From: a virus
Strand: one strand, 5' to 3'
DNA length: 64,000 bases
IMG/VR virus record: IMGVR_UViG_3300042914_002167
Shown: one piece after another, positions 1,611 through 48,999 of the stretch
Layout: every line of letters starts with the position of its first letter
How positions within the stretch are numbered: position 1 is the stretch's first letter
Notes under the pieces: model-generated
What the model was told of the DNA's origin: nothing
Database searches by the model: none
What the model saw: only the letters and a program-made list of their open reading frames with translations
Made by a program: the position numbers and the translations under genes

Positions 1611-3473
1611 ATGTCACTATTAACCCTGTTGAGTTCTGCCGGCGAGGCGGGGATAGTAGTAGGCAATGTATCTGAGATCAGTTTAGCGACTTCTGATTCC
1701 AGTGTCGCTAATGTTGTATTTGTAAGCACACTAAGTGAACCAAGTTTAGCGACTTCTGATTCCAGTGTCGCTAATGTTGTATTTGACATCAGTTCAAGTG
1801 AACAGGAACTATCAGCAACTGCTACTGAGTCAGCTAATGCTGAATTCGTAAGCACCCTAAGTGAAACGACATCAACATCAGAGACCGAATCTGCTGATGT
1901 AACATCAACTCTGAATGTATCGGAATCTACATCTACATCAGAGACCGAATCCGCGAATGCTGTATTTGCTGTAACTCTATCTGAAGATTCTGTTGCGACA
2001 TCAACAACAGAATCTTTTGATGGTTCTTCATTAGAAACAGTTTCCGAAACAAATTCTATATCATCAACAGAATCTGCTAATGCTGTATTCTTAAGCACGC
2101 TAAGTGAAACGAATTCCACAACATCAACAGAATCAACTAATGCTGAATTCACTTCTACCCTAAGTGAACCAGAACTATCAGCATCATCAACAGAATCTGC
2201 TAATGCTGTATTTGCTGTAACTCTATCTGAAGATTCTGTTGCGACATCAACAACAGAATCTTCTGATGGTTCTTCATTAGAAACAGTTTCCGAAACAAAT
2301 TCTGTAACTGCTACAGAATCTGCTAATGCTGAATTCGTAAGCACGCTAAGTGAACCAGAACTATCAGCAACTGCTTCCGAATCTTCTAATGCTGAATTCG
2401 TAAGCACACTAAGTGAAACAAATTCAACAGCATCTACAGAATCAACTAATGCTGTATTCACTTCTTTCCTAAGTGAAACCGTATCAGCGTCTTCAACTGA
2501 ATCTTCTGGTGGCGTTCAATCAGAAACAGTTTCCGAAACAAATTCTGTCACTTCTACAGAATCTTCTAATGCTGAATTCGTAAGCACACTAAGTGAAACA
2601 AATTCAACAGCATCTACAGAATCAACTAATGCTGAATTCGTAAGTACTCTAAGTGAAACGACTTCAACGGATTCGTCAGAACTTTCTAGCGCAAATGTAG
2701 TATCAAGTCTCAGTGAAACCTCTGTCGCAACATCTGCATCAGAGATTGCCTCAATTTTATCAACAAGAGTATTGAATGAAACATCTGCATCGGTTACAGA
2801 TGTTGCAAATGCTTCTTTTGTGGCACTTGCATCGTCAGATGAATCTAGTGTAATAACTTCAAGTGAAAATTCTACTGTCACCGCAGCATCAAGCGTATCT
2901 GAATCAACATCGTCTACAGAAGTATCGTCAAGTCAATTAACTGCAAACGCAACACTAAATGAAAGCACATCTACATCAGAGTCGATTGTTGCTGATATTT
3001 TCATTGATTTTTCAGAAGTTCCTGTTTCTTCAAGTGATTCAATAACGGCATCTTTAGCATTTAATAGAAGCGTTAGTGAGTCTACAAACGCAACAGATTT
3101 TGTAGATTCCATTGCTGCAAGATTTGGAAAACCAACTCTACCGCTGAACACCGCACATATAATCAGAAGAAATTATCCTAGAAATGTGAGTGTGTTTTTC
3201 AGAGCATCATTTGATCATATATCATCTGTATCTGGGCTGCAGCCAGAGATCAGTATAAGTAAAGAAGGAAGTCCATTCACCACTGTCAATAGAACAGTTA
3301 CAGATTTGGGTGATGGAATATATTCAATCGCACTGTTAGCGTCTGATACTGATACTTTAGGTGAATTGACTATTCTTGCAAAAGATCCATTCAATCTTGC
3401 AGACAACACGGCGATTGCAGCAACCGTGCAAGATGAATATTTGACAAAGGGCGAGTTTCTTGCTTTGAATTAG
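1611..3473 (+). CDS. Ser/Thr/Glu-rich tandem-repeat protein, probably a virion surface protein
   Basis: 620 aa with ~20-aa repeats of the type LSETNSTASTESTNAEFVST and a non-repetitive C-terminus; SD AGGA. Confidence 0.7.
   Translation: MSLLTLLSSAGEAGIVVGNVSEISLATSDSSVANVVFVSTLSEPSLATSDSSVANVVFDISSSEQELSATATESANAEFVSTLSETTSTSETESADVTSTLNVSESTSTSETESANAVFAVTLSEDSVATSTTESFDGSSLETVSETNSISSTESANAVFLSTLSETNSTTSTESTNAEFTSTLSEPELSASSTESANAVFAVTLSEDSVATSTTESSDGSSLETVSETNSVTATESANAEFVSTLSEPELSATASESSNAEFVSTLSETNSTASTESTNAVFTSFLSETVSASSTESSGGVQSETVSETNSVTSTESSNAEFVSTLSETNSTASTESTNAEFVSTLSETTSTDSSELSSANVVSSLSETSVATSASEIASILSTRVLNETSASVTDVANASFVALASSDESSVITSSENSTVTAASSVSESTSSTEVSSSQLTANATLNESTSTSESIVADIFIDFSEVPVSSSDSITASLAFNRSVSESTNATDFVDSIAARFGKPTLPLNTAHIIRRNYPRNVSVFFRASFDHISSVSGLQPEISISKEGSPFTTVNRTVTDLGDGIYSIALLASDTDTLGELTILAKDPFNLADNTAIAATVQDEYLTKGEFLALN
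1680..2660 (+). repeat. Degenerate ~60-63 bp coding tandem repeats with longer internal duplications
   Basis: Recurrent ctaagtgaaac...gaatc..ctaatgctgaattcgtaagc units; a ~100 bp block near 1956 recurs near 2202. Confidence 0.85.
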
Positions 3474-3480
3474 CAATGTT

Positions 3481-3488
3481 TATAAATA
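3481..3488 (+). promoter_or_regulatory. T4-type late promoter (gp55-dependent)
   Basis: TATAAATA upstream of gp67. Confidence 0.85.
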
Positions 3489-3507: not shown

Positions 3508-3732
3508 ATGAGCGATGAACTAAAAAATGCAATTGCGTCAGTTTTTGAAACTGATCCTTCAGCATTCAAGAGTGCAATTTTTGATATTTTGGGAGCAAAA
3601 GTTTCTGACAAACTCCATGCTGCAAAAGTAGATTACGCATCAAGTGTTTTTGATCAATCTGATGATTCAGATGATGAAGAATACGAAGAAAATTCAATTG
3701 AAACAGGGGAAACAACAGATGAAGAAGTTTAG
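3508..3732 (+). CDS. gp67: Prohead core protein gp67-like
   Basis: Small protein with a helical N-terminus and acidic tail, placed before gp68-21-22-23; SD AAGGAG. Confidence 0.7.
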   Translation: MSDELKNAIASVFETDPSAFKSAIFDILGAKVSDKLHAAKVDYASSVFDQSDDSDDEEYEENSIETGETTDEEV

Positions 3733-5056
3733 TTCTTTCGTTAGTCAACTAGATGAGTTGACTGGCGTTGCACCTAAGTCTAAGGGTGAACACAAGTTCG
3801 TTCACTCAACTTATCTCGCTCAGATCAAAGATCCAGGTGATCTAGAGAAAGTTGGTCCTGAAGAGATTGGTCCTCATGACACGAAAACAGGTTCTGGTAA
3901 GAGACCGGCAGACAGACTAGACAACAAGCAAAAGTTTGGTGAGTCAGTTGACCTAGAAGAGAACTATCGCGTACTTGCACAAAAAGGCATTGGTGCTGAA
4001 AGAAAGCAAGACATCAAGGTTGGTCACGGAGTTGACTATTATCATCCAAAAGATGGGTCTAAGCACATGGGCAAGATTCATGATATGAGTGATAAGGGAT
4101 ATACTGTCAAGGACGACAAGACTGGCGAGAAGCACAAGTTTGATTACTTCAGAAAAGAAGAAGTTGAGCATGTTGAAGAGGGAAGAGGCGCATACGATGA
4201 ACTAGCGAGGCGCATGGGCACTAGCAGCCCCGGATTCAACAAGACTCCTGCTGGCAAAGCTAGAGAACAAAAGCGCAGACAAGAACATCTAAAGGGTCAA
4301 ATGCAGTTCACTCAGAGAATGGGTGGGCTCACTGGTCCTAAGGGTAAGTTGCCAGAAGAAGTTGAACTTGAAGAGGGTTACGAAAAGGTAGTTCTCAACT
4401 TTCTAAAAAATAAAGGCATTGATGCAGATTTCAGGTATGGAAAACTTCATGTTGACAAACGCGACATGCAAAAAGCAAAGTCTGCATTAGCAAAAGCAGA
4501 TTCATTTGATGCGAAAAATTTGCAAATTGTTGCCGAAGAAGTTGAACTAGAAGAAGCCGAAATTCATAAACCAGGAACAAAAGTAAGAGTTCCACACAAC
4601 GGTAAGATGGTTTCTGGTAAAGTCGTAAGACACGATAAGGGTGACAAGCACGGAAGTCCACATTATGTCGTAGATGTGGGTGGCTATCGTTCAGAAAATA
4701 TTCCAGCACACAAAGTTCAAAAAGAAGAAGTTGAACTAGAAGAAGCCGACTTCTCCAAAGCACAGACAACAATGGCACACACAATCGGTAAATACTTCAA
4801 GAAGAAGGGTGTCGGAGACGAATCTAAAGGTGGTCCATTTGCAGTTGCATCAGCAATGGTAAGAGACAAGCCAGCTTCAGCAAAGAAAGCATACACAACA
4901 ATCAAAGCAAAGATGAAGAACGAAGATCATCAAGACATGCTAATGGCACTCTATGATTCTCTAAATGAAGAGAATCAAAGTATGTTTGAGTCTATGATTG
5001 AAACTGATCCAGAAAAACTTCTTGCTTTTGCAGAATCAGTTTTGTCTAAGGAGTAA
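3719..5056 (+). CDS. Modular internal-head polyprotein with repeated EEVELEE linkers
   Basis: Starts MKKFSSFVSQLDE; basic modules separated by ESVDLEE, EEVEHVEE and 3x EEVELEE; located inside the head operon. Confidence 0.65.
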   Translation: MKKFSSFVSQLDELTGVAPKSKGEHKFVHSTYLAQIKDPGDLEKVGPEEIGPHDTKTGSGKRPADRLDNKQKFGESVDLEENYRVLAQKGIGAERKQDIKVGHGVDYYHPKDGSKHMGKIHDMSDKGYTVKDDKTGEKHKFDYFRKEEVEHVEEGRGAYDELARRMGTSSPGFNKTPAGKAREQKRRQEHLKGQMQFTQRMGGLTGPKGKLPEEVELEEGYEKVVLNFLKNKGIDADFRYGKLHVDKRDMQKAKSALAKADSFDAKNLQIVAEEVELEEAEIHKPGTKVRVPHNGKMVSGKVVRHDKGDKHGSPHYVVDVGGYRSENIPAHKVQKEEVELEEADFSKAQTTMAHTIGKYFKKKGVGDESKGGPFAVASAMVRDKPASAKKAYTTIKAKMKNEDHQDMLMALYDSLNEENQSMFESMIETDPEKLLAFAESVLSKE

Positions 5057-5058
5057 TC

Positions 5059-5517
5059 ATGCCAGATGCAGTAACGACACAAGTTCTAAAAGATCACGCT
5101 GGTGGATATGCAGTAAAGCTAACTAACATTTCTGATGGTACAGGTGAAAATAATGTCATCAAAGTTGATGCATCTACACTTGTAGCAAACACTGGAGTTG
5201 GAGCAGAGAGACTTTCAATTACAAAATTGTTGTGGTCTGTTGCATCCGGAACATCTTCAACAATGTCACCTAGAGTTGTTCTATCTTGGGCTGGATCATC
5301 AAACACAGTTATCGCAACACTCACTGGTTCTGGATATTGGGATTTATCATCTGGTGCACAAGCTCCATTCATAAATAATGCACCAACACCAACAGGAGAT
5401 ATTCTGTTGTCTACAGCAGGCTTCACTGCAAATGCTGCATACACAGTTGTCATTGAGGGTAAGAAGGGCGCTGGTTTCGCAAGTCGTGAATCCACTGATG
5501 ATGGTATTTCACCATGA
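5059..5517 (+). CDS. Conserved head-region hypothetical/structural protein
   Basis: 152 aa, beta-rich, SD AAGGAG, between the gp67 region and gp68. Confidence 0.6.
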   Translation: MPDAVTTQVLKDHAGGYAVKLTNISDGTGENNVIKVDASTLVANTGVGAERLSITKLLWSVASGTSSTMSPRVVLSWAGSSNTVIATLTGSGYWDLSSGAQAPFINNAPTPTGDILLSTAGFTANAAYTVVIEGKKGAGFASRESTDDGISP

Positions 5518-5786
5518 TTCGTTTCAAAGAGTTCATTTCTGAAGCTAGAACGGAAAGAGTAAATCGCATCCGTCATGGTAAAATTCAGAAGAGAGTTCTT
5601 GTTAGCAGAGTTCCTGGATACAAAGTAGAAGATGGTAGACTTGTCAAGATGTCATATCAAGAGATAAGACACAGAGAAGTTGCACAGAGAAAAGCTGCTA
5701 GAAAAAGAAAAGCGATGATGAATCAAATCGTCAGAAAAATGAAGATGTCACTGAGAAAAAGAAAAACTGCGGGGTTCAACAAATGA
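5514..5786 (+). CDS. gp68: Prohead core protein gp68-like
   Basis: K/R-rich, N-terminus MIRFKEFISEA, directly upstream of gp21. Confidence 0.65.
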   Translation: MIRFKEFISEARTERVNRIRHGKIQKRVLVSRVPGYKVEDGRLVKMSYQEIRHREVAQRKAARKRKAMMNQIVRKMKMSLRKRKTAGFNK

Positions 5787-6433
5787 AACTAATCACAGAA
5801 CTGGTAGAAGATGTCAAGTATGTAACAGAAGCAACCGAAAATGGAAAGAAAAATCTTTACATTGAGGGCATCTACATGCAGGCTGAGAAACCAAATCGGA
5901 ACGGAAGAATGTATCGCATGGAGACTCTAGAAAGAGAAACAAAGCGTTACAACGAAGAGTATGTTATGAAGGGGCGCGCTTTCGGTGAATTGGGTCATCC
6001 ATCAGGACCAACCATCAATCTAGAAAGAGCATCACACTTGATCAAGTCTCTGAAATCGGAAGGCACGGACTTCTACGGTAGAGCAAAGATTCTAGACACA
6101 CCATACGGAAACATCGTAAAGAACTTGATTGATGAGGGCGCCACACTTGGCGTTTCCACTCGAGGCATGGGAAGTCTAAAAGAGGGCAAAGATGGAGTCA
6201 AGATCGTCGAAGATGATTTCTATCTCGCAACAGCAGCCGATATTGTAGCGGATCCATCAGCACCAGATGCATTCGTTCGCGGCATCATGGAAAGCAAAGA
6301 GTGGGTTTGGGATAACGGTGTCATTCGCGAAATGGACATCAATACATACAAGAATGCTATCAAGAAAGCGTCAAGTAAAGAATTGACTGAAATGAAACTA
6401 AAAGTTTTCAAAGATTTCCTAGGAAAACTTTGA
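5783..6433 (+). CDS. gp21: Prohead protease
   Basis: MKLITE, NRNGRMY, GELGHP, GVSTRGMGSL, DIVADPSAPDAFV. Confidence 0.95.
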   Translation: MKLITELVEDVKYVTEATENGKKNLYIEGIYMQAEKPNRNGRMYRMETLERETKRYNEEYVMKGRAFGELGHPSGPTINLERASHLIKSLKSEGTDFYGRAKILDTPYGNIVKNLIDEGATLGVSTRGMGSLKEGKDGVKIVEDDFYLATAADIVADPSAPDAFVRGIMESKEWVWDNGVIREMDINTYKNAIKKASSKELTEMKLKVFKDFLGKL

Positions 6434-6499: not shown

Positions 6500-7234
6500 A
6501 TGGGAATCGAAACTAAAGAACACATTGATGCTCTATTCAGCGGAGAAGAACTATCAGAACAATTCAAAGATCAGGCGAAAGCAATCTTTGAAGCGGCTGT
6601 TCAATCTAAAGTAGAAGAGCACAAGACACAACTAGAAGAAGAGATGGAAGGGCTTCTTGAGCAAAAAACTCTAGAAATCACTGAAACTCTTGTTTCAAAG
6701 ATTGACGACTATCTTGACTATGTTGTGACTGAATGGATGGAAGAAAATAAAGTTGCAATCGAAACTGGTCTAAAAGCTGAAATGGCAGAAGACTTTATGG
6801 TTGGTCTGAAGAATCTATTCACAGAACACTATATCACTATTCCTGAAGATAAAGTTGATATTGTTGAAGGTATGGCTGAAAAAGTCGAATCGCTACAGCA
6901 AGACTTGGATTCAGCGATCACAGAAAGAGCAGAATTGATTGATCAGCTAAACACATACAAGAAGCAACAAATTGCATTTGAAGTTTCAGAAGACCTTTCT
7001 GAAGTTCAGATGGCAAAATTGCAATCGCTGGCAGAACACATTGAGTTTGTGTCTGAGGGTGATTACAAAGAAAAACTTCTTTTGACAAAGAAGAAGTATT
7101 TTGAGTCTAAGGAATCCGAAGACTCGGTGATCGATTCACAAAGTAGTCTTGATTCCGAAGAATCTCTGGACGAATCATTCTCACCAGTAATGAGCCGTTA
7201 TGTACAGAGCATTTCAAGAAATGTGAAAAAGTAA
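6500..7234 (+). CDS. gp22: Prohead core scaffold protein
   Basis: Acidic coiled coil with ALFSGEELSE, IFEAAV, DYLDYVVTEWMEEN; between gp21 and gp23. Confidence 0.92.
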   Translation: MGIETKEHIDALFSGEELSEQFKDQAKAIFEAAVQSKVEEHKTQLEEEMEGLLEQKTLEITETLVSKIDDYLDYVVTEWMEENKVAIETGLKAEMAEDFMVGLKNLFTEHYITIPEDKVDIVEGMAEKVESLQQDLDSAITERAELIDQLNTYKKQQIAFEVSEDLSEVQMAKLQSLAEHIEFVSEGDYKEKLLLTKKKYFESKESEDSVIDSQSSLDSEESLDESFSPVMSRYVQSISRNVKK

Positions 7235-7284: not shown

Positions 7285-8598
7285 ATGTCAGTAGAAGCAC
7301 TTGTAAAAAAATGGAGTCCAGTTCTTGAACACTCTGAACTATCAGCAATCAAGGACAATCACAGAAGAGCGGTTACCGCACAACTTCTAGAGAACCAAGA
7401 AATCGCACTTCGCGAAGGTTCTTCAGGCGGATATCAGTCACAATCATCACTGTTGTCAGAAGCAGCCCCAACAAACAACATGGGTCTATCTTCTTCAACA
7501 GCTGGTCAAGGTGGTATCGACACATACGATCCAGTTCTAATCAGCTTGGTTCGTCGTGCAATGCCAAATCTTATCGCGTATGACATCTGCGGCGTTCAGC
7601 CAATGACTGGTCCTACAGGCTTGATCTTCGCAATGCGTTCTAACTACACAGTACAGCGTGGTACAGAAGCACTGTTCAACGAAGCAAATACAGCATTCTC
7701 TGGTGTCGGTGGTCAAGCTGGGTCTACACCTGCTCTTGCTAACGCTACAAACTACACATACGGCACAGCAATGTCTACTATACGTGCAGAATCATTGGGT
7801 GATGGCACAAACGCATTCGCTGAAATGGCATTCACAATCGACAAGATTGCTGTTACTGCTAAGAGCCGTGCATTGAAGGCAGAGTACACAATGGAATTGG
7901 CACAAGACTTGAAGGCAATTCACGGTCTTGACGCTGAACAAGAATTGTCAAACATTCTTTCCACAGAAATTCTTGCTGAAATCAACCGTGAAGTTGTTCG
8001 TACAATCAACTCTACAGCTACTGTTGGCGCACAAGAAAACGTTGCAATCGCAGGTACATTCGACCTAGACGTTGACGCTAACGGTCGTTGGTCTGTTGAG
8101 AAGTTCAAGGGTCTAATGTTCCAACTAGAGCGCGAAGCTAACGCAATTGCTAAGGCAACTCGTCGCGGTAAGGGTAACGTTATGATCTGTTCTTCTGACG
8201 TTGCATCAGCACTTCAGATGGCAGGTGTTCTTGACTACACTCCAGCACTTGCAAACAACTTGCAAGTTGACGACACAGGCAATACATTCGCAGGTGTTCT
8301 AAACGGTCGTGTCAAGGTTTACATCGATCCATATTTCGCAGCATCTGCTGGCGTTCACTACGCAACTATGGGTTACAAGGGAACTTCAGCATTTGACGCT
8401 GGTTTGTTCTACTGCCCATACGTTCCACTACAGATGGTTCGTGCTGTCGGTCAAGACACATTCCAACCTAAGATTGGCTTCAAGACACGTTACGGCATGG
8501 TTGCAAACCCATTCGCAACATCTGCTGGCGATGGCGCTGTAGCATTCGCTAATAAGAATCTGTACTATCGCAGATTCGCGATTACAAACTTGATGTAA
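7285..8598 (+). CDS. gp23: Major capsid protein
   Basis: LVRRAMPNLIAYDICGVQPMTGPTGLIFAMR, KSRALKAEYT, FQPKIGFKTRYG. Confidence 0.98.
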   Translation: MSVEALVKKWSPVLEHSELSAIKDNHRRAVTAQLLENQEIALREGSSGGYQSQSSLLSEAAPTNNMGLSSSTAGQGGIDTYDPVLISLVRRAMPNLIAYDICGVQPMTGPTGLIFAMRSNYTVQRGTEALFNEANTAFSGVGGQAGSTPALANATNYTYGTAMSTIRAESLGDGTNAFAEMAFTIDKIAVTAKSRALKAEYTMELAQDLKAIHGLDAEQELSNILSTEILAEINREVVRTINSTATVGAQENVAIAGTFDLDVDANGRWSVEKFKGLMFQLEREANAIAKATRRGKGNVMICSSDVASALQMAGVLDYTPALANNLQVDDTGNTFAGVLNGRVKVYIDPYFAASAGVHYATMGYKGTSAFDAGLFYCPYVPLQMVRAVGQDTFQPKIGFKTRYGMVANPFATSAGDGAVAFANKNLYYRRFAITNLM

Positions 8599-29662: not shown

Positions 29663-29927
29663 AGAGATTATCGGTGAAGTATTGAGTGATGATGAAGATA
29701 TAATTATGATCAAGAACCCTTGTTTGATTGGTCTCACGATGAGTCAGCAGGGGCAACCGTCCATCAACATGCAAAGACTTCTTCCGTTTTCTTCTGATAC
29801 TGAAGTGGGCATCTACAAAAAGAATCTATTGTTCATCGTTGGTGTTGACGCCAAGATTGAAATGAAGTACAATGAAATCTTCGGCAACATTATCGTTGCG
29901 CAATCAAAGAAGATTATCACTGGCTAA
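29625..29927 (+). CDS. Conserved hypothetical protein (Sm-like)
   Basis: IKILRTVAGEEIIGEV; precedes gp43. Confidence 0.6.
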   Translation: MAIIKILRTVAGEEIIGEVLSDDEDIIMIKNPCLIGLTMSQQGQPSINMQRLLPFSSDTEVGIYKKNLLFIVGVDAKIEMKYNEIFGNIIVAQSKKIITG

Positions 29928-43807: not shown

Positions 43808-46102
43808 ATGAAAAAATTCAAAACACATCTCACTGAAGCGAAAAAGTCTACCGTTGTGGTGTCATTCGGAAGAATGAATCCGATGACAAACGGGCACGAA
43901 AAACTCGCAAACAAACTCAAGTCAGAAGCTGCATCGCGTAGCGCAGACGCAAAGTTATATCTCTCACATTCCACTAATCCCAAAAAAGATCCTCTGTCGT
44001 TTGACGCTAAAGTCAAATTCGCAAAGAAGGCTTTTGGTCCAATGGTGCAGAACTCAGTAGCACGAACTATCATTGAAGTTGCTAAAGAGTTGACTGGTAA
44101 GTATTCCAATCTTGTGGTTGTTGTTGGCAGTGATCGTGTTCCAGAATTCAGAACATTGCTTGAGAAATACAACGGCAAAGACTTCACATTTGATTCCATT
44201 GAAATTGTATCCGCCGGAGAAAGAGATCCAGACGCAGAGGGCGTAGAGGGTATGTCTGGATCAAAGATGCGCAAGTTTGCAGCAGATGAAGACTTTGCGA
44301 ACTTCAAACAGGGTGTTCCATCTAAGTTGTCTGACTCAGACGCAAAAGAACTCTATAACGCAGTGAGAAAGGGCATGAAGTTGGACGAAAGCGTTGAACT
44401 GGAAGAGGGCGAACAGACTACAGCAGACTACAAAGTAAGCAAGAGTGGTAAGAAGTATCCTGCACACAGAATCGTCTTGGGAAAGAAAAGAAAAGAAGAT
44501 GATGAAGAGTCTGAAGAAGACGATAAGGAAGATGTGAAAGAAGCAGTTCTCAACTACTCTCAGCGTATGATGAGAGCGACAAGATTCAAGCGTCTCCAGA
44601 AGAGAGTGCAAAGAGCAAGAACCCTTGCAATGAGAAGATATGCAAATCCTGAGCGTTTGAAACAACGATCTCTGAAGATGGCAAGAAACTTCTTGAGAAT
44701 GCACATGGCTGGAGGCAAACAGTATTCCAATCTTTCCACTGGTGAAAAGATTTCAGTAGACACAAGAATGCAGAGACTTGCGCCTGTGATCAAGAAACTG
44801 GCCGCACGACTAATGCCAACTGTCAGACAAAAAGAAACACTGCGTCATGTCGTTGGTTCATCCGTCAAAGAAGAAACTCAAATCAATGAACTGGCGTATC
44901 AAGGAAACATCGGTGCAATGGAAATGTTTGCTTTCTTCCAGAAGGCAACAGATGAACAAAAGAAACAGATGAAAGCGTTGATTGGTGCAGGTAAAGATAG
45001 AGAAGCATGGAAGTTGATTCACAAAGTCACGGGTGTCAAGTTGGTTGGTCCTCAGTTTGAACAGTATCTGATGGAGCAAGAAGAAGAGGAAGAAGACGAA
45101 ACTGAGATTGATGGTCTAGAGATGATCCAGATTGAACTTCGCGCAATGATTGAAGATGCGAGAAGTTTGCTAGTGACAATTAGTAATATGGAAGAAGAGC
45201 CAGAAGCATGGGTTCAATCTAAAGTCAGTCTCGCCACAGATTACATTGCAAGCGTCAAAGATTATCTTGAGTTCTCTGATGATGATGATGAAGAAGAAGA
45301 TGATGACGAAAGCGAAGATGATTACGCAGACGCTGAAGATGCAATGTATGGAATGGAAACAGAGGGATTTGAGTCTGATCTAGAACATATCGTAGAAACG
45401 CTAAACGCACTTCACAAGAAATCCGAAAAGAGTGGAATTGACTATTCAACTATCCGAGAAGTATACTTGAGGGGTCTTCAATCATATGATGAATCTGCAT
45501 CAATGACTCCACAACAATGGGCATTTGCTAGAGTCAATTCATTCGTCAGTGGCGGTGCTACAATCAAGCACGATGATGCTGATTTATGGGAGTCTGTTCA
45601 GAGAAACAATAAGTTCTCACAGTTTGCAGAGGGTGTTCTTGAGTACGGCACAGATGCAGCTAGATTAGCCTATGCTAGAGCAACACCCGGGCAGAGCCAA
45701 GAAATCACGATGGCTAGATACTCAGCAGATAAAGCACTAGAAGCAATCAACAGTGCAAATCTTCAGAGAGCATTCAAGTTGTACAGCGAAGAAGCGTGTT
45801 GCGATGAGTGTCAAGATGAAATCGTTGAAGAAGTAGATTGGGATCTAGTTCTTCACGAAGCGCAGTATCAGGGCAAAGACGTTACGCTAAACAAGCCATT
45901 CTACACACCAGATGGACCAAAGAAGTCTGCGGTGTACACAATGGGACCAAACGATAAAGTTGTGATTGTTCGTTTCGGTGATCCTAATATGGAAATCAAA
46001 AAAGACAATCCAGAGAGAAGAAAGAGTTTCCGTGCAAGACATAATTGCGACGAACCAGGACCAAAGTGGAAAGCAAAATACTGGTCTTGCGCAGCATGGT
46101 AA
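43808..46102 (+). CDS. HxGH nucleotidyltransferase fused to multiple small modules (polyprotein-like)
   Basis: MKKFKTHLTEA; FGRMNPMTNGH, VVGSDR, SAGERDPD, MSGSKMR; linkers ESVELEE, QINE, VLHE; C-terminal RKSFRARHNC..YWSC. Confidence 0.75.
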   Translation: MKKFKTHLTEAKKSTVVVSFGRMNPMTNGHEKLANKLKSEAASRSADAKLYLSHSTNPKKDPLSFDAKVKFAKKAFGPMVQNSVARTIIEVAKELTGKYSNLVVVVGSDRVPEFRTLLEKYNGKDFTFDSIEIVSAGERDPDAEGVEGMSGSKMRKFAADEDFANFKQGVPSKLSDSDAKELYNAVRKGMKLDESVELEEGEQTTADYKVSKSGKKYPAHRIVLGKKRKEDDEESEEDDKEDVKEAVLNYSQRMMRATRFKRLQKRVQRARTLAMRRYANPERLKQRSLKMARNFLRMHMAGGKQYSNLSTGEKISVDTRMQRLAPVIKKLAARLMPTVRQKETLRHVVGSSVKEETQINELAYQGNIGAMEMFAFFQKATDEQKKQMKALIGAGKDREAWKLIHKVTGVKLVGPQFEQYLMEQEEEEEDETEIDGLEMIQIELRAMIEDARSLLVTISNMEEEPEAWVQSKVSLATDYIASVKDYLEFSDDDDEEEDDDESEDDYADAEDAMYGMETEGFESDLEHIVETLNALHKKSEKSGIDYSTIREVYLRGLQSYDESASMTPQQWAFARVNSFVSGGATIKHDDADLWESVQRNNKFSQFAEGVLEYGTDAARLAYARATPGQSQEITMARYSADKALEAINSANLQRAFKLYSEEACCDECQDEIVEEVDWDLVLHEAQYQGKDVTLNKPFYTPDGPKKSAVYTMGPNDKVVIVRFGDPNMEIKKDNPERRKSFRARHNCDEPGPKWKAKYWSCAAW

Positions 46103-46134
46103 AGAACAACACATACAATCAAGGAGATATCAAC

Positions 46135-47202
46135 ATGTCACTAGCAAACAAATTTGGAATTCCACAGGGTCTTCTGGACGCATCAAAAGCAGCCTTGGAT
46201 GAAGCGAATGAGTATCAGAAGAAAGTTCAAGCACACATGGCAAAAAAAGGCATCAAGTCAATGAGCGATATGACTGCTGACCAGAAGAAGAAGTTCTTCA
46301 ATGAACTAGATGCCATGCACACAGCAAAGCATGAAGAAGTTGAATCTGTCGAAGAGGAACTAAAGGGCGATATGCACCCAGGAGCAAAAAAGGTTCTAAA
46401 GCACATCAAGCCAGAGCATCAAGACAAGTACAAGCCTTACCTAAAGAAGGGCGTATACAGGGGCGACTATAAGGATCGTGCTGCTGTATTGAGTGCCGCT
46501 GAGAGAGCGAAGCATACCAATGAAGAGTATTTTGCCGAGGAAGAAGAACTTGAAGAATTGGCAATCTCACCTGCCGCAAGAAGAGATGCTTACGAAAGAC
46601 AAGCGGATTATCATCGCTCGCGTGATGAAGATGATGTTTCACCAAGCGCAGATTTGCACAAGCACAAGTTGAAGACTCTACATCGCGCACACGAACTCCA
46701 TTCAATGCATCAAGGTACTGCCGACACTAGCAATAAAGATGAAAAGTCTGACTTCCATAATGCGACAAAAACAATGCGCAGAATTGAAAAGCATGTTGCT
46801 GCAAAGTACGGTAAAAAAGAAGCGGGTAGACTACAAAGAGGAGACTATAGAGAAGAAGTCTCTCTAGATGACTTTTCCCCTAAAGACATTGAATCCTTCA
46901 TGCAGACTGAAGACTACAATCAATTGGATGAGTTGAGCAAGAACACACTAGCGAGTTACATCAAAAAGCGCAGTCATGATGTTGCTGCAATGGGCGCAGT
47001 CACACGCAAACACGCTATGGACTCTGAGGCTGCTAGAAAAGATCAGAACTACTCCCAAGCAAAAAAGAGTAACGACAAATCAAACAGAGCCTTCATGAAG
47101 GGTTGGAAGCACCGTGAAAATATCGGTAAGGCTGTAGACAAACTGACCAAAGAAGAGTTTGAATTCATTGAGTCTTTGAACGCAGGAACTGCTAAGGAAT
47201 AA
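46135..47202 (+). CDS. Modular basic internal-protein-like polyprotein
   Basis: SD AAGGAG; linkers ALDE, EEVESVEE, EEELEE, QLDE-LSKNTLASYIKK. Confidence 0.6.
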   Translation: MSLANKFGIPQGLLDASKAALDEANEYQKKVQAHMAKKGIKSMSDMTADQKKKFFNELDAMHTAKHEEVESVEEELKGDMHPGAKKVLKHIKPEHQDKYKPYLKKGVYRGDYKDRAAVLSAAERAKHTNEEYFAEEEELEELAISPAARRDAYERQADYHRSRDEDDVSPSADLHKHKLKTLHRAHELHSMHQGTADTSNKDEKSDFHNATKTMRRIEKHVAAKYGKKEAGRLQRGDYREEVSLDDFSPKDIESFMQTEDYNQLDELSKNTLASYIKKRSHDVAAMGAVTRKHAMDSEAARKDQNYSQAKKSNDKSNRAFMKGWKHRENIGKAVDKLTKEEFEFIESLNAGTAKE

Positions 47203-47205
47203 AAC

Positions 47206-48999
47206 ATGAAAACGATAAAGGAACTTCTTGGGCTGTCAGAAGCCAAAAAGAAAAATATGAAGGGTGAAGACCCTTGCTGGGACAACTACGAAATGGTCGG
47301 CACAAAGAAGAAGAACGGCAAAGAAGTTCCTAATTGTGTGCCAAAGAATGAAGAACTTGAACTTGAAGAAGGTTCAATGGCAAGTCAATGGAAGTCTGGT
47401 GCAAAGTCTATCAAGAAAGGTTCCGTAGAACTTGTTCGTGGGCAAGGCGTTCATACAATCAAGAAAGACGGAAAAGAGATTGGTGACTTTTCTCTTGACG
47501 ACGATGCTGGCAATTGGGTTATCAACTGGAACAAGAAGAAGCCTGGGCGCGGGCAAGGTGTTCATGATCATATTGACGACATCGTAGATGCTGCATTGAA
47601 AGAAGAAGTTGAAATCTACGAAGCCAAAGTCGGAGACACAGTTTCTTTCCATCACGAATTGAAAGCTGCGCCTGGCACTAAGATGAAGAAGAGTGGAACT
47701 GTAGAGAAGGTTCGGGGCGACGATGTTCTTGTGAAAGTCAAGGACAGATATGGCGTCAAGCGCCATCAAGTCAAGATGAGTGATCTTGTCAAAGAGAACT
47801 TTGGCGCAGACTTCCTAGCTATGGCAAGACAGAAGAATCCAAATGCGCGCCTAGTTACTCCTGAGCAGAAGAAAAAAGAAGCTGAAGAGTTGGCAAAGAA
47901 GAGGGCTGGGCTAAAGCCAACACATGCTGCTCCTACAGGCAACTCTCGCCCATTGGGTGGATACGATCCTAAGTCTAATCGTTCATACTCAGAAGAAGTT
48001 GAGAGTGTGGCGGAAGCAAGTCCAAAAGACAAAATTAAAGACGATGACAAACCATTCAATTACGCCGACTGGGCCAAGAGTGGCAAAAAACCTCGCGCAC
48101 TACCAGGTTGGGGTCCTAAGGGTTTTAGCACCCGGCTGTTCAAAGATGACCCTAAAGGCAAGAAAGATAAAGACCAAGGTGTGACGGAAGGAGTAGAACA
48201 AGTTGACGAACTAAACAAAGACACTGTTTACTCATACAACAAGAAGTCAACAGCAGAGACAGAAAAACTCCACAAGAAACTCGGCGAATTCATTCGTAGC
48301 AACAAACCATCAGAGGCTAACAAAACTGCACACAAGTTGAACAAGAGAGTTGCTGGGCAAGAACGCGCAGATGCTAGAATGAACACTGAAGAAACTGTAG
48401 TTGAAGAAGCACCTTCAATTCATGTGAGAACGTCATACACTCAAGCTTACGCAAAGCATCATAAGACTGGAAAGAAACCTTCCGAAGCCGTCGCAGCAGC
48501 CTATGAAGATGTTGCGAAGAAACATGGCTATGACATGGTAAAAAAACTAAAAGCACACCATGCAGCAAATGAGCAAGTTGAGACTGCTGCACAAGTGGTA
48601 AAGCACTTTGAGAAGGGGCAATCTACTCCTTCTGGTGTGCCTAAGTGGGTCGCAGAGCCACTAAAGAAAAAAAAGAAAGTGCAAGAAGCGGGTGATCCAG
48701 AAATGATGGGTGGTGCGGTTAGTAGACCGACTGCTTCAGGAAACAATCCAAAACTTGCAGACAAGTTCATGAAGGCTTTCAAAAAGATGAAGTCTCCAGC
48801 CAATATTTCATGTAAGACAGTTGGCATGACTTCTACATGTGAAGACACTGAGCAAGAATTCAATAATATGTTCACCGAAGCAATGAAGAAAAAGCCAGAA
48901 CCAAATTCTAAACAGAATTTGAAGAAAGGTGAAAAACTGAGCGGAAAGCAAGAGCCTATAACAATTTCTCCAGAGATTGAGAAAAAAGGCGTTGCATAA
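47206..48999 (+). CDS. Modular basic internal-protein-like polyprotein
   Basis: MKTIKELLGLSEA; DPCWDNY...VPNCVP; linkers EELELEE, EEVEIYE, EEVESVAE, VEQVDE, ETVVEE. Confidence 0.6.
   Translation: MKTIKELLGLSEAKKKNMKGEDPCWDNYEMVGTKKKNGKEVPNCVPKNEELELEEGSMASQWKSGAKSIKKGSVELVRGQGVHTIKKDGKEIGDFSLDDDAGNWVINWNKKKPGRGQGVHDHIDDIVDAALKEEVEIYEAKVGDTVSFHHELKAAPGTKMKKSGTVEKVRGDDVLVKVKDRYGVKRHQVKMSDLVKENFGADFLAMARQKNPNARLVTPEQKKKEAEELAKKRAGLKPTHAAPTGNSRPLGGYDPKSNRSYSEEVESVAEASPKDKIKDDDKPFNYADWAKSGKKPRALPGWGPKGFSTRLFKDDPKGKKDKDQGVTEGVEQVDELNKDTVYSYNKKSTAETEKLHKKLGEFIRSNKPSEANKTAHKLNKRVAGQERADARMNTEETVVEEAPSIHVRTSYTQAYAKHHKTGKKPSEAVAAAYEDVAKKHGYDMVKKLKAHHAANEQVETAAQVVKHFEKGQSTPSGVPKWVAEPLKKKKKVQEAGDPEMMGGAVSRPTASGNNPKLADKFMKAFKKMKSPANISCKTVGMTSTCEDTEQEFNNMFTEAMKKKPEPNSKQNLKKGEKLSGKQEPITISPEIEKKGVA

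Follow-up and report, generated by a model that had tools for sequence, protein, structure and literature searches.

Results

Gene X encodes a chain of modules joined by a repeated linker

We analysed a 64,000-nucleotide stretch of viral DNA (IMG/VR record IMGVR_UViG_3300042914_002167), referred to below as the window, which is derived from an uncultured marine T4-like phage. The subject of the analysis is gene X, an open reading frame (ORF) at 3719-5056 on the + strand, which lies in the T4-type head operon of this phage and encodes a modular protein of 445 amino acids (aa) that we read as a putative head-cargo polyprotein. Its true start is the ATG at 3719 (MKKFSSF...). More than 460 homologues were collected from metagenomic contigs (sources JGI, ENA, NCBI and Logan), and all of them start at the equivalent methionine.

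A preliminary description of the region had reported two identical, one near-identical and two degenerate DNA repeats at the module junctions of this gene, and a repeat search finds them where they had been placed. It recovers a single family of 26-nucleotide (nt) direct repeats in the region, with two copies that are 100% identical (4535-4560 and 4724-4749) and three weaker ones (4355-4380, 81%; 3941-3966 and 4157-4182, 69%), spaced 216, 198, 180 and 189 nt from start to start. No tandem repeat, no notable inverted repeat and no Rfam family were found in this region. The exact 26-mer occurs at only two sites in the 64 kb, compared to 0 expected in shuffles. A degenerate in-frame pattern for the peptide EEVELEE has five matches (0.05 expected), and the 11-nt core of the repeat, GAAGAAGTTGA, occurs nine times (0.14 expected). 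All five copies, which we term linkers, are in frame within the ORF and encode ESVDLEE, EEVEHVEE and, three times, EEVELEE. A linker core, GAAGAAGTT, is also found at 3721-3729 at the end of the upstream gp67-like ORF (..D-E-E-V-stop), where it is read in the gp67 frame and overlaps the gene X ATG; it may be a linker remnant or a coincidence.

The protein starts with a leader, MKKFSSFVSQLDE (3719-3757), which resembles the capsid targeting sequence (CTS) of T4 by motif match and ends L-D-E (residues 11-13). Five modules, each with a linker at its end, and a C-terminal domain follow on the same + strand. Module 1 (3758-3961, family N1; linker 1, ESVDLEE, 3941-3961) is predicted to be disordered, with a predicted local distance difference test score (pLDDT) below 50, and is wholly missing in three homologues (P0009, P0012 and P0013). 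Module 2 (3962-4180, family B; linker 2, EEVEHVEE, 4157-4180) is a putative Tudor/SH3-like small beta-barrel (pLDDT 78-85) and matches phrog_5709. Module 3 (4181-4375, family D; linker 3, EEVELEE, 4355-4375) is very basic, is predicted to form a single long helix and also occurs in unrelated architectures, those of P0100, P0111 and P0120. Module 4 (4376-4555, family N; linker 4, EEVELEE, 4535-4555) has a predicted alpha-beta-beta-alpha-beta fold (pLDDT ~90) with a structural match to the type III secretion ring-building motif (Z 5.5). Module 5 (4556-4744, family H; linker 5, 4724-4744), which lies between the two identical 26-nt repeats, is again a putative SH3/Tudor-like beta-barrel. Finally, the conserved C-terminal domain of five predicted helices (4745-5053), which starts with ADFSK, defines the family; it comprises 36 clusters at 50% identity and is always C-terminal. 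The repeats do bracket unrelated modules, as had been proposed, and this one polypeptide of the head operon contains six modules of differing sequence clusters. Without their acidic eight-residue tails, modules 1-5 are basic (isoelectric points 9.1-11.4).

An AlphaFold model of the gene X product, built on 54 homologues, has a mean pLDDT of 63. It contains folded blocks at residues 94-144 (barrel), 221-273 (alpha-beta-beta-alpha-beta), 288-325 (second barrel) and 347-443 (helical); for modules 1 and 3 it predicts mostly disorder or one helix. The folded modules are separated by stretches of low confidence, and all five linkers are found within these or immediately behind them: four have pLDDT below 50, and the third adjoins such a stretch at residues 197-216. 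Residues 94-144 match the SMN Tudor domain (Z 6.0, root-mean-square deviation 1.5 Å over 49 of 59 residues) and residues 277-339 the Tudor domain of ERCC6-L2 (Z 5.4). These matches cover whole domains but are modest, with Z below the level that excludes a common arrangement and Foldseek E-values of 0.1-0.4. The models are thus consistent with Tudor/SH3-like small barrels in modules 2 and 5, and to this extent agree with the earlier guess of an SH3/KOW beta-barrel for at least two of the modules, although with such weak scores the fold is not proven. Folded alone with AlphaFold2, the C-terminal domain has a pLDDT of 82 and five helices; fold searches with it gave no convincing match (best Z 5.0, phage G1 ORF67) and nothing in BFVD. 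Searches of Pfam returned no family for the whole of gene X or any of its modules (E up to 1, above the cut-off), and a profile search of the PDB returned no sequence relative.

The DNA identity of the linkers exceeds what codon preference accounts for. Under window-wide codon usage, EEVELEEA encoded twice independently would come out identical with P = 7.7 × 10−4; the value is P = 3.1 × 10−3 under the usage of gene X itself outside the linkers, where GCC, the alanine codon common to the identical linkers, has a usage of 3%. At P ~0.001-0.003, an explanation by codons alone fails. Across 17 other loci, same-peptide linkers within one ORF have 82% of their codons identical compared to 54% expected, and eight linker pairs are fully identical compared to 0.3 expected, an excess that is somewhat overstated, as these loci were drawn by DNA pattern. 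In other phages the linker peptide is written with other codons, for example GAG TTG instead of GAA CTA. By this comparison, the primary and deepest constraint on the linker is therefore on its peptide, which points to a role at the protein level such as that of a protease site, and the DNA identity would reflect recent copying or exchange.

Modules are very probably exchanged as cassettes at the linkers

The homologues share the leader and the C-terminal domain and differ in their internal module sets. Over 3.6 kb, flanking genes included, contig L007 matches the window at 99.5-99.8% identity and is collinear with it in the flanks, but exactly 4355-4534 is absent from it. These 180 bp extend from linker copy 3 to linker copy 4 and form the module 4 cassette. 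The L007 junction lies within a common 14-nt sequence, GAAGAAGTTGAACT, and the two alignment blocks (high-scoring segment pairs) overlap by 27 nt. At four further indel junctions, identified by comparing the DNA of L001, L008, L011 and the window, the overlap is 14-31 nt and falls in a linker each time. L001 moreover has a linker, at a non-orthologous position, that is identical at 23 of 23 nt to linkers 4 and 5 of the window; the identity of the modules is 82-88%.

Whole architectures vary in the same way. That of the window is N1-B-D-N-H-CT, where CT is the C-terminal domain; others are N1-B-D-H-CT, N1-B-D-Q-CT, N1-B-D-CT and N1-B-E-D-R-CT, as well as B-E-D-Q-CT, B-Z-N-K-E-CT and N1-B-E-R-I-J-CT. 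More than 40 module families recur, and the same module is found at differing positions and in unrelated proteins. Between relatives that are at least 90% identical in their shared parts we counted 114 distinct indels of 40-185 aa (median 64). An EEVE-type motif lies within 10 aa of both ends in 35% of them (5.5% expected) and a linker at one or both ends in 77% (33% expected), which leaves 23% with a linker at neither end. Of the boundaries of high-identity local alignments, 53% lie no more than 8 aa from a linker, compared to 18% for random positions. The association of the linker tail with the upstream or the downstream module is mixed; only for module D is it clearly downstream (x-V-E-E-G), a hint that crossovers take place in the EEVE core. 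The one-module difference of L007, the combinatorial architectures and the enrichment of linkers at indels show that relatives have no fixed module content. More than 240 homologues were compared for gains, losses and swaps of whole modules, and these break at the linkers. It is very likely from these alignments that different phages, and also paralogous genes, acquire, drop and swap whole modules at this site.

Assemblers can be misled by repeats, and with relatives that all come from metagenomic contigs, the varying architectures might be chimeras or collapses produced by the repeated 26-mer. Such an artefact is extremely improbable, since assembly k-mers are usually longer than repeats of 14-26 nt, dozens of distinct architectures were seen again in samples independent of each other and in different sources (JGI, ENA, NCBI, Logan), the flanks of L007 are collinear and nearly identical, and all junctions are in frame.

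The linker DNA might also have no causal part in the exchange. Recombination would then be illegitimate and random, the in-frame junctions at linkers would be those that survive, and the identical 26-mers would be due to recent duplication or shared descent. This fits the shortness of the homology patches (11-31 nt), the variable codons of the linker peptide, which leave no universal DNA signal among phages, and the 23% of indels without a linker at either end. It does not sit well with the single recent event, that of L007, whose junction is inside a perfect repeat, with the overlap at all four further junctions, with linkers of different phages that are identical at non-orthologous positions in more divergent modules, or with synonymous codons shared within one ORF far above expectation. 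T4-type systems, moreover, recombine at patches of less than 50 bp (PMC2839356), and the window encodes UvsY and UvsW. We consider this explanation rather unlikely. Of the suggestion that the linkers serve as in-frame recombination sites and make a cassette array inside one gene, the exchange at linkers stands, while a causal role of the DNA cannot be told apart from selection for in-frame junctions.

The linker resembles a reiterated prohead-protease site

The prohead protease gp21 of T4 cleaves after Glu (PMC5694885) and removes 10 and 65 residues, the latter from the N-terminus of gp23 (PMC9958956). In the T4 CTS, residues 4 and 7 target the protein and residues 8 and 10 direct its processing (PMC9026906). 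The T4 records read MKTYQEFIAE↓A for the internal proteins (IPs) IPII and IPIII, MKTFKEF...I-T-E↓A for IPI, MAKINELLRE↓S for gp24, MELITELFDE↓D for Alt and ..F-L-T-E65↓A for gp23, with the arrow marking the cut. Exchange of the P1 Glu for Asp prevents processing of the T4 CTS. The leader consensus of the gene X family, MKTFKSF, is close to MKTFKEF of IPI; the leader of the window is MKKFSSF. Phenylalanine is found at position 4 in 113 and at position 7 in 106 of 124 family leaders, and the first [LIV]xE in these leaders ends at median residue 12.

The linkers end in the same way. Among 224 distinct EEV[ED] cores, 83% continue directly with [LIVFM]-x-E, and the P3 residue in those linkers is L in 54%, I in 22% and V in 19% (L/I/V together 95%). 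In gene X itself every linker ends [L/I/V]-x-E, and eight of the nine [LIV]xE motifs of the protein are at the leader end or in linkers. The gp23 protein of the window has L-S-E59↓A, which aligns with the T4 maturation site L-T-E65↓A. Finally, the shortest relatives, of 115 aa, consist of the leader and the C-terminal domain only and read ..F-L-A-N-I-S-E↓A-D-F-T-K; other short relatives have the order leader-linker-domain, leader-B-domain or leader-N1-domain. The I-S-E↓ADF of the minimal forms is the same junction as ..L-E-E↓A-D-F-S-K at the last linker of gene X. In our reading, each linker is a CTS cleavage site, repeated along the protein. By analogy with T4, the linker is most likely a prohead-protease site, a role absent from the preliminary description.

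Alternatively, gene X might encode an uncleaved, beads-on-a-string head-internal or scaffold-accessory protein, whose acidic linkers are flexible spacers or contacts to scaffold or DNA and, as spacers, tolerate exchange junctions. The predicted disorder of the linkers would suit this, as would the lack of depletion of [LI]xE inside modules, and EEVE-like acidic runs occur in scaffolding proteins generally, including T4 gp22. A spacer, however, would not need the invariant hydrophobic-x-Glu ending seen in 83% of the cores, nor would it coincide with the leader cut junction of the minimal forms or match the aligned gp23 maturation site. We regard an uncleaved protein as unlikely and think it quite probable, on the T4 analogy, that the product of gene X is cleaved and packaged in heads.

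Gene X lies in a T4-type head operon

Peptidase_S77, T4_CASP and Gp23 are all found within 3.5 kb downstream of gene X. The operon of gene X and the gp67-like gene is preceded by a T4-type late-promoter consensus, TATAAATA (3481-3488, + strand), a predicted function that follows from the motif. This consensus has seven matches in the window, all on the + strand, compared to 1.26 expected; other sites include 6456 (before gp22), 7240 (before gp23) and 43740 (before a second cluster of linker proteins, see below). The head genes are likewise on the + strand. The small acidic protein of 74 aa at 3508-3732, whose end (..DEEV-stop) overlaps the gene X start, is a putative gp67-like prohead core protein by its T4-like position and a weak match to phrog_1064 ('prohead'). 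Directly downstream of gene X lies a conserved ORF of 152 aa (5059-5517) without a family match; it has a homologue at the same place in Pelagibacter phage Mosig (Mosig_00039), in L007 and in L008. It is followed by a gp68-like basic core protein (5514-5786), assigned by its N-terminus, MIRFKEFISE, which is CTS-like and closes with I-S-E, and by phrog_3503 ('head scaffolding protein'). The gp21-type prohead serine protease (5783-6433; Pfam Peptidase_S77, E 1.7 × 10−37), the proposed linker-cutting enzyme, is 42% identical to T4 gp21. The gp22 scaffolding core protein (6500-7234; Pfam T4_CASP, E 3.7 × 10−65) is the expected docking partner of the leader, and the major capsid protein gp23 (7285-8598; Pfam Gp23) comes next. 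UvsY, UvsW and gp55 are encoded after the head genes.

By gp23, the nearest cultured phages are Methylophilales phage Melnitz (68% identity) and Pelagibacter phage Mosig (66%). A tblastn search with gene X against 50,697 isolated phage genomes gave no match. Directly upstream of the head operon, the ORF at 1611-3473 encodes a protein of 620 aa with Ser/Thr/Glu-rich repeats of ~20 aa, almost no Lys or Arg and a globular C-terminal part. Two antisense ORFs at gene X (4431-4784 and 3953-4171) have no support and were taken as chance.

Leaders and linkers are found at further loci

A second late cluster of the window (43808-48999, + strand) encodes three proteins that combine CTS-like leaders with the same linkers. 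The first, of 764 aa (43808-46102), has the leader MKKFKTHLTE↓A, which runs directly into a cytidylyltransferase-like N-terminal domain with a TNGH (HxGH-type) motif, followed by an ESVELEE linker and further domains (DUF5824). The assignment is based on phrog_3041 and a weak match to Pfam CTP_transf_like, and homologues are annotated as 'cytitidyltransferase' in hundreds of cyanophage genomes. If its leader works, an enzyme would be packed into the capsid. The other two proteins are encoded at 46135-47202 and 47206-48999, the latter starting with MKTIKELLGLSE. Families I, C and N are common to the modules of this cluster and those of gene X homologues. The similarity that had been pointed out between a gene X module and one in 47206-48999 is real, and the module family is also found in the homologues P0014 and P0100. 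A further observation concerns phrog_5709 (676 positions), which matches module B of gene X with its positions 301-351 and a module of the ORF 46135-47202 with positions 401-485; this PHROG is thus itself built from such multi-module proteins of sequenced phages. Elsewhere in the window, an ORF of 830 aa on the + strand at 29927 starts with MKFYTNFTRLGKFIVE and fits a loose CTS pattern, which is probably a chance match.

A scan of IMG/VR with the 21-nt linker pattern yielded 119 loci. About half of the matches are in ORFs with 2-9 linkers, some of them longer than 1400 aa; a gp21 homologue is present in 20 of the 119 loci, and the multi-linker ORF is often directly upstream of it. Profile-guided scans gave one locus in IMG/VR and four in metagenome contigs. 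In T4, gp22 is a known substrate of gp21. The gp22 scaffolds of five related contigs (L040, L021, L105, L060 and L065) carry an EEVE[LIV]xE motif, either between a long charged N-terminal extension and the scaffold domain or just before the conserved C-terminal tail.

In the OM43 phage Melnitz-3 (L139, MZ577098.1 12203-18519), which is cultured, five adjacent genes each start with a leader that resembles the T4 CTS, namely MQGFKTFLSE, xINFSKYITE, MKKFSELTSELIE, MKKFSEIIE and MTRYNKTMSEALSE. They correspond to the second cluster of the window; one of them has an EEIEIDE linker, and the second contains a KxDG ligase-like motif. By these sequence features, the cluster looks like a set of candidate capsid-cargo genes.

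Discussion

A proposed head-cargo polyprotein with reiterated cleavage sites

The reading that we favour, at a probability of roughly 60%, is that gene X encodes a late-expressed, capsid-loaded head-cargo polyprotein, in which reiterated prohead-protease sites mark the points of in-frame exchange. The leader (MKxFxxF..L-D-E) would dock the gene X product into the gp22 scaffolding core as the T4 CTS does. The gp21-type protease encoded 0.7 kb downstream would then cut after the Glu of the [L/I/V]-x-E at the leader end and in the linkers (..EEVELEE↓ before A, G or N), which would release about six small and mostly basic proteins of 60-100 aa: two Tudor/SH3-like barrels, one alpha/beta protein, two poorly ordered basic modules and the helical C-terminal domain. 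These modules would remain with the DNA and might also leave the capsid together with it. The coding DNA of the linker, with its 11-nt core and up to 26-31 identical nt, would act as an in-frame homology patch for the phage recombination system; homology of less than 50 bp suffices for T4-type recombination (PMC2839356). A crossover from linker to linker rebuilds an intact cut site, and nearly every such recombinant would therefore be viable. The ancestor of such a gene may have been T4 IP-like, consisting of a leader and the C-terminal domain; cassettes would then have been inserted where leader and mature protein meet, and each insertion would have repeated the cleavage site.

Several points weigh against this reading. 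Patches of 11-26 nt are short for efficient T4-type homologous recombination, and selection for in-frame junctions could give the same breakpoints without a role of DNA homology; the codon excess at the 17 loci, as said, is inflated by the way they were drawn. The case for a protease site rests on motif, position and T4 analogy. Across the family, [LI]xE is not detectably depleted in module cores, with a ratio of 0.95 to shuffles at an incomplete module segmentation. Released modules would keep an acidic eight-residue tail that lowers their net positive charge. Moreover, Melnitz and Mosig have no gene X between portal and gp21 but only small separate ORFs there.

We also put forward, tentatively, that the linker is under dual selection, as a protease site at the level of the peptide and as an in-frame recombination signal at the level of the DNA, which would make gene X an integron-like array of domain cassettes. 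If this were true, it would amount to phage 'exon shuffling' without introns, with a pool of injected mini-proteins that is re-assorted across genes and marine T4-like lineages.

Should the head-cargo reading hold, many uncultured marine T4-like phages would load their heads differently, with one gene encoding a chain of small proteins that the head protease cleaves. The cut-site linker would double as a safe place for recombination, which would explain a rapid diversification of the cargo without broken proteins. A leader combined with [L/I/V]-x-E linkers offers a testable rule to search metagenomes for cargo proteins; it also suggests, as a natural design, how T4-type capsids might be made to carry several foreign proteins. 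With leader-bearing genes and one linker in the cultured Melnitz, where genes 15-20 of MZ577098 encode proteins of this kind, an experimental system exists, and the candidates suit virion proteomics.

Comparison with known systems

The internal proteins of T4 are the classic case of proteins that enter the host along with the DNA, and work on the CTS and gp21 processing in T-even phages was reportedly published by Mullaney and Black in 1996. By analogy, the T-even internal proteins are the closest relatives of the gene X product in function. IPI, IPII, IPIII and Alt carry a CTS and are processed by gp21 (reviewed in PMC9026906, PMC3012670 and PMC5694885), and all three T4 internal proteins disarm restriction systems (PMC12373910). 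Like gene X, they belong to phages with gp21, gp22 and gp23 and combine a leader of ~10-13 residues, with aromatic residues at positions 4 and 7 and a closing [L/I]-x-E, with highly variable payloads and small, mostly basic products; the minimal members of the gene X family resemble an IP gene. However, the T4 IPs are encoded by separate genes with one site each, whereas gene X strings together up to six or more unrelated mini-domains and reiterates the cut site. Its payloads have no sequence similarity to any T4 IP, and their packaging and ejection are predictions.

Repeats at the IP locus of T4-type genomes were reportedly described by Repoila et al. in 1994. The exchange of modules is reminiscent of such repeats and of the PeSL (promoter/stem-loop) cassettes, both cases of modular shuffling in T4-type genomes (Arbiol et al., 2010, PMC2839356; Comeau et al., 2014, PMC4122927). 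In both PeSL and gene X, short conserved sequences flank variable cassettes, and close relatives differ by an exact cassette indel between repeats; the PeSL model invokes recombination between the repeats by the phage's own machinery at less than 50 bp of homology. The PeSL is an intergenic element of ~100 bp that moves whole genes, whereas the repeat of gene X consists of 11-31 nt of coding sequence and moves protein domains. Since this repeat is coding and lies inside one gene, exchange must be in frame, and it is. For the PeSLs, inverse PCR has reportedly been used to look for mini-circles.

The polyvalent proteins of phages and conjugative elements (Iyer et al., 2017, PMC5512222) provide a third parallel; the paper notes their paucity in cyanobacteria, and marine T4-like phages are not treated in it. 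They too combine many unrelated domains in combinatorial architectures and are predicted to be packed into capsids, delivered with the DNA and released by proteolysis. They contain an embedded peptidase (MPTase) and large enzymatic domains from a defined catalogue, in contrast to gene X, which has no peptidase, no Pfam domain and modules of ~60 aa. Unlike the MPTase, the protease proposed for gene X, the prohead protease, would act in trans.

Finally, the giant phages phiKZ, 201phi2-1 and SPN3US have head and ejection proteins that are processed at multiple sites (PMC5694885, PMC7411985, PMC10052503). As proposed for gene X, a gp21-related prohead protease cuts after Glu (x-X-E) at several sites per protein. 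These sites are mostly in discarded propeptides, however, and neither a regular linker-module-linker array nor a cassette exchange based on the sites has been described for them. A full-text literature search for the linker peptides and for polyprotein-type internal proteins retrieved no published description. The window contributes a natural before-and-after pair at 99% identity and an analysis of the junctions at the DNA level, and with them the minimal forms, by which the linker is connected to the CTS junction.

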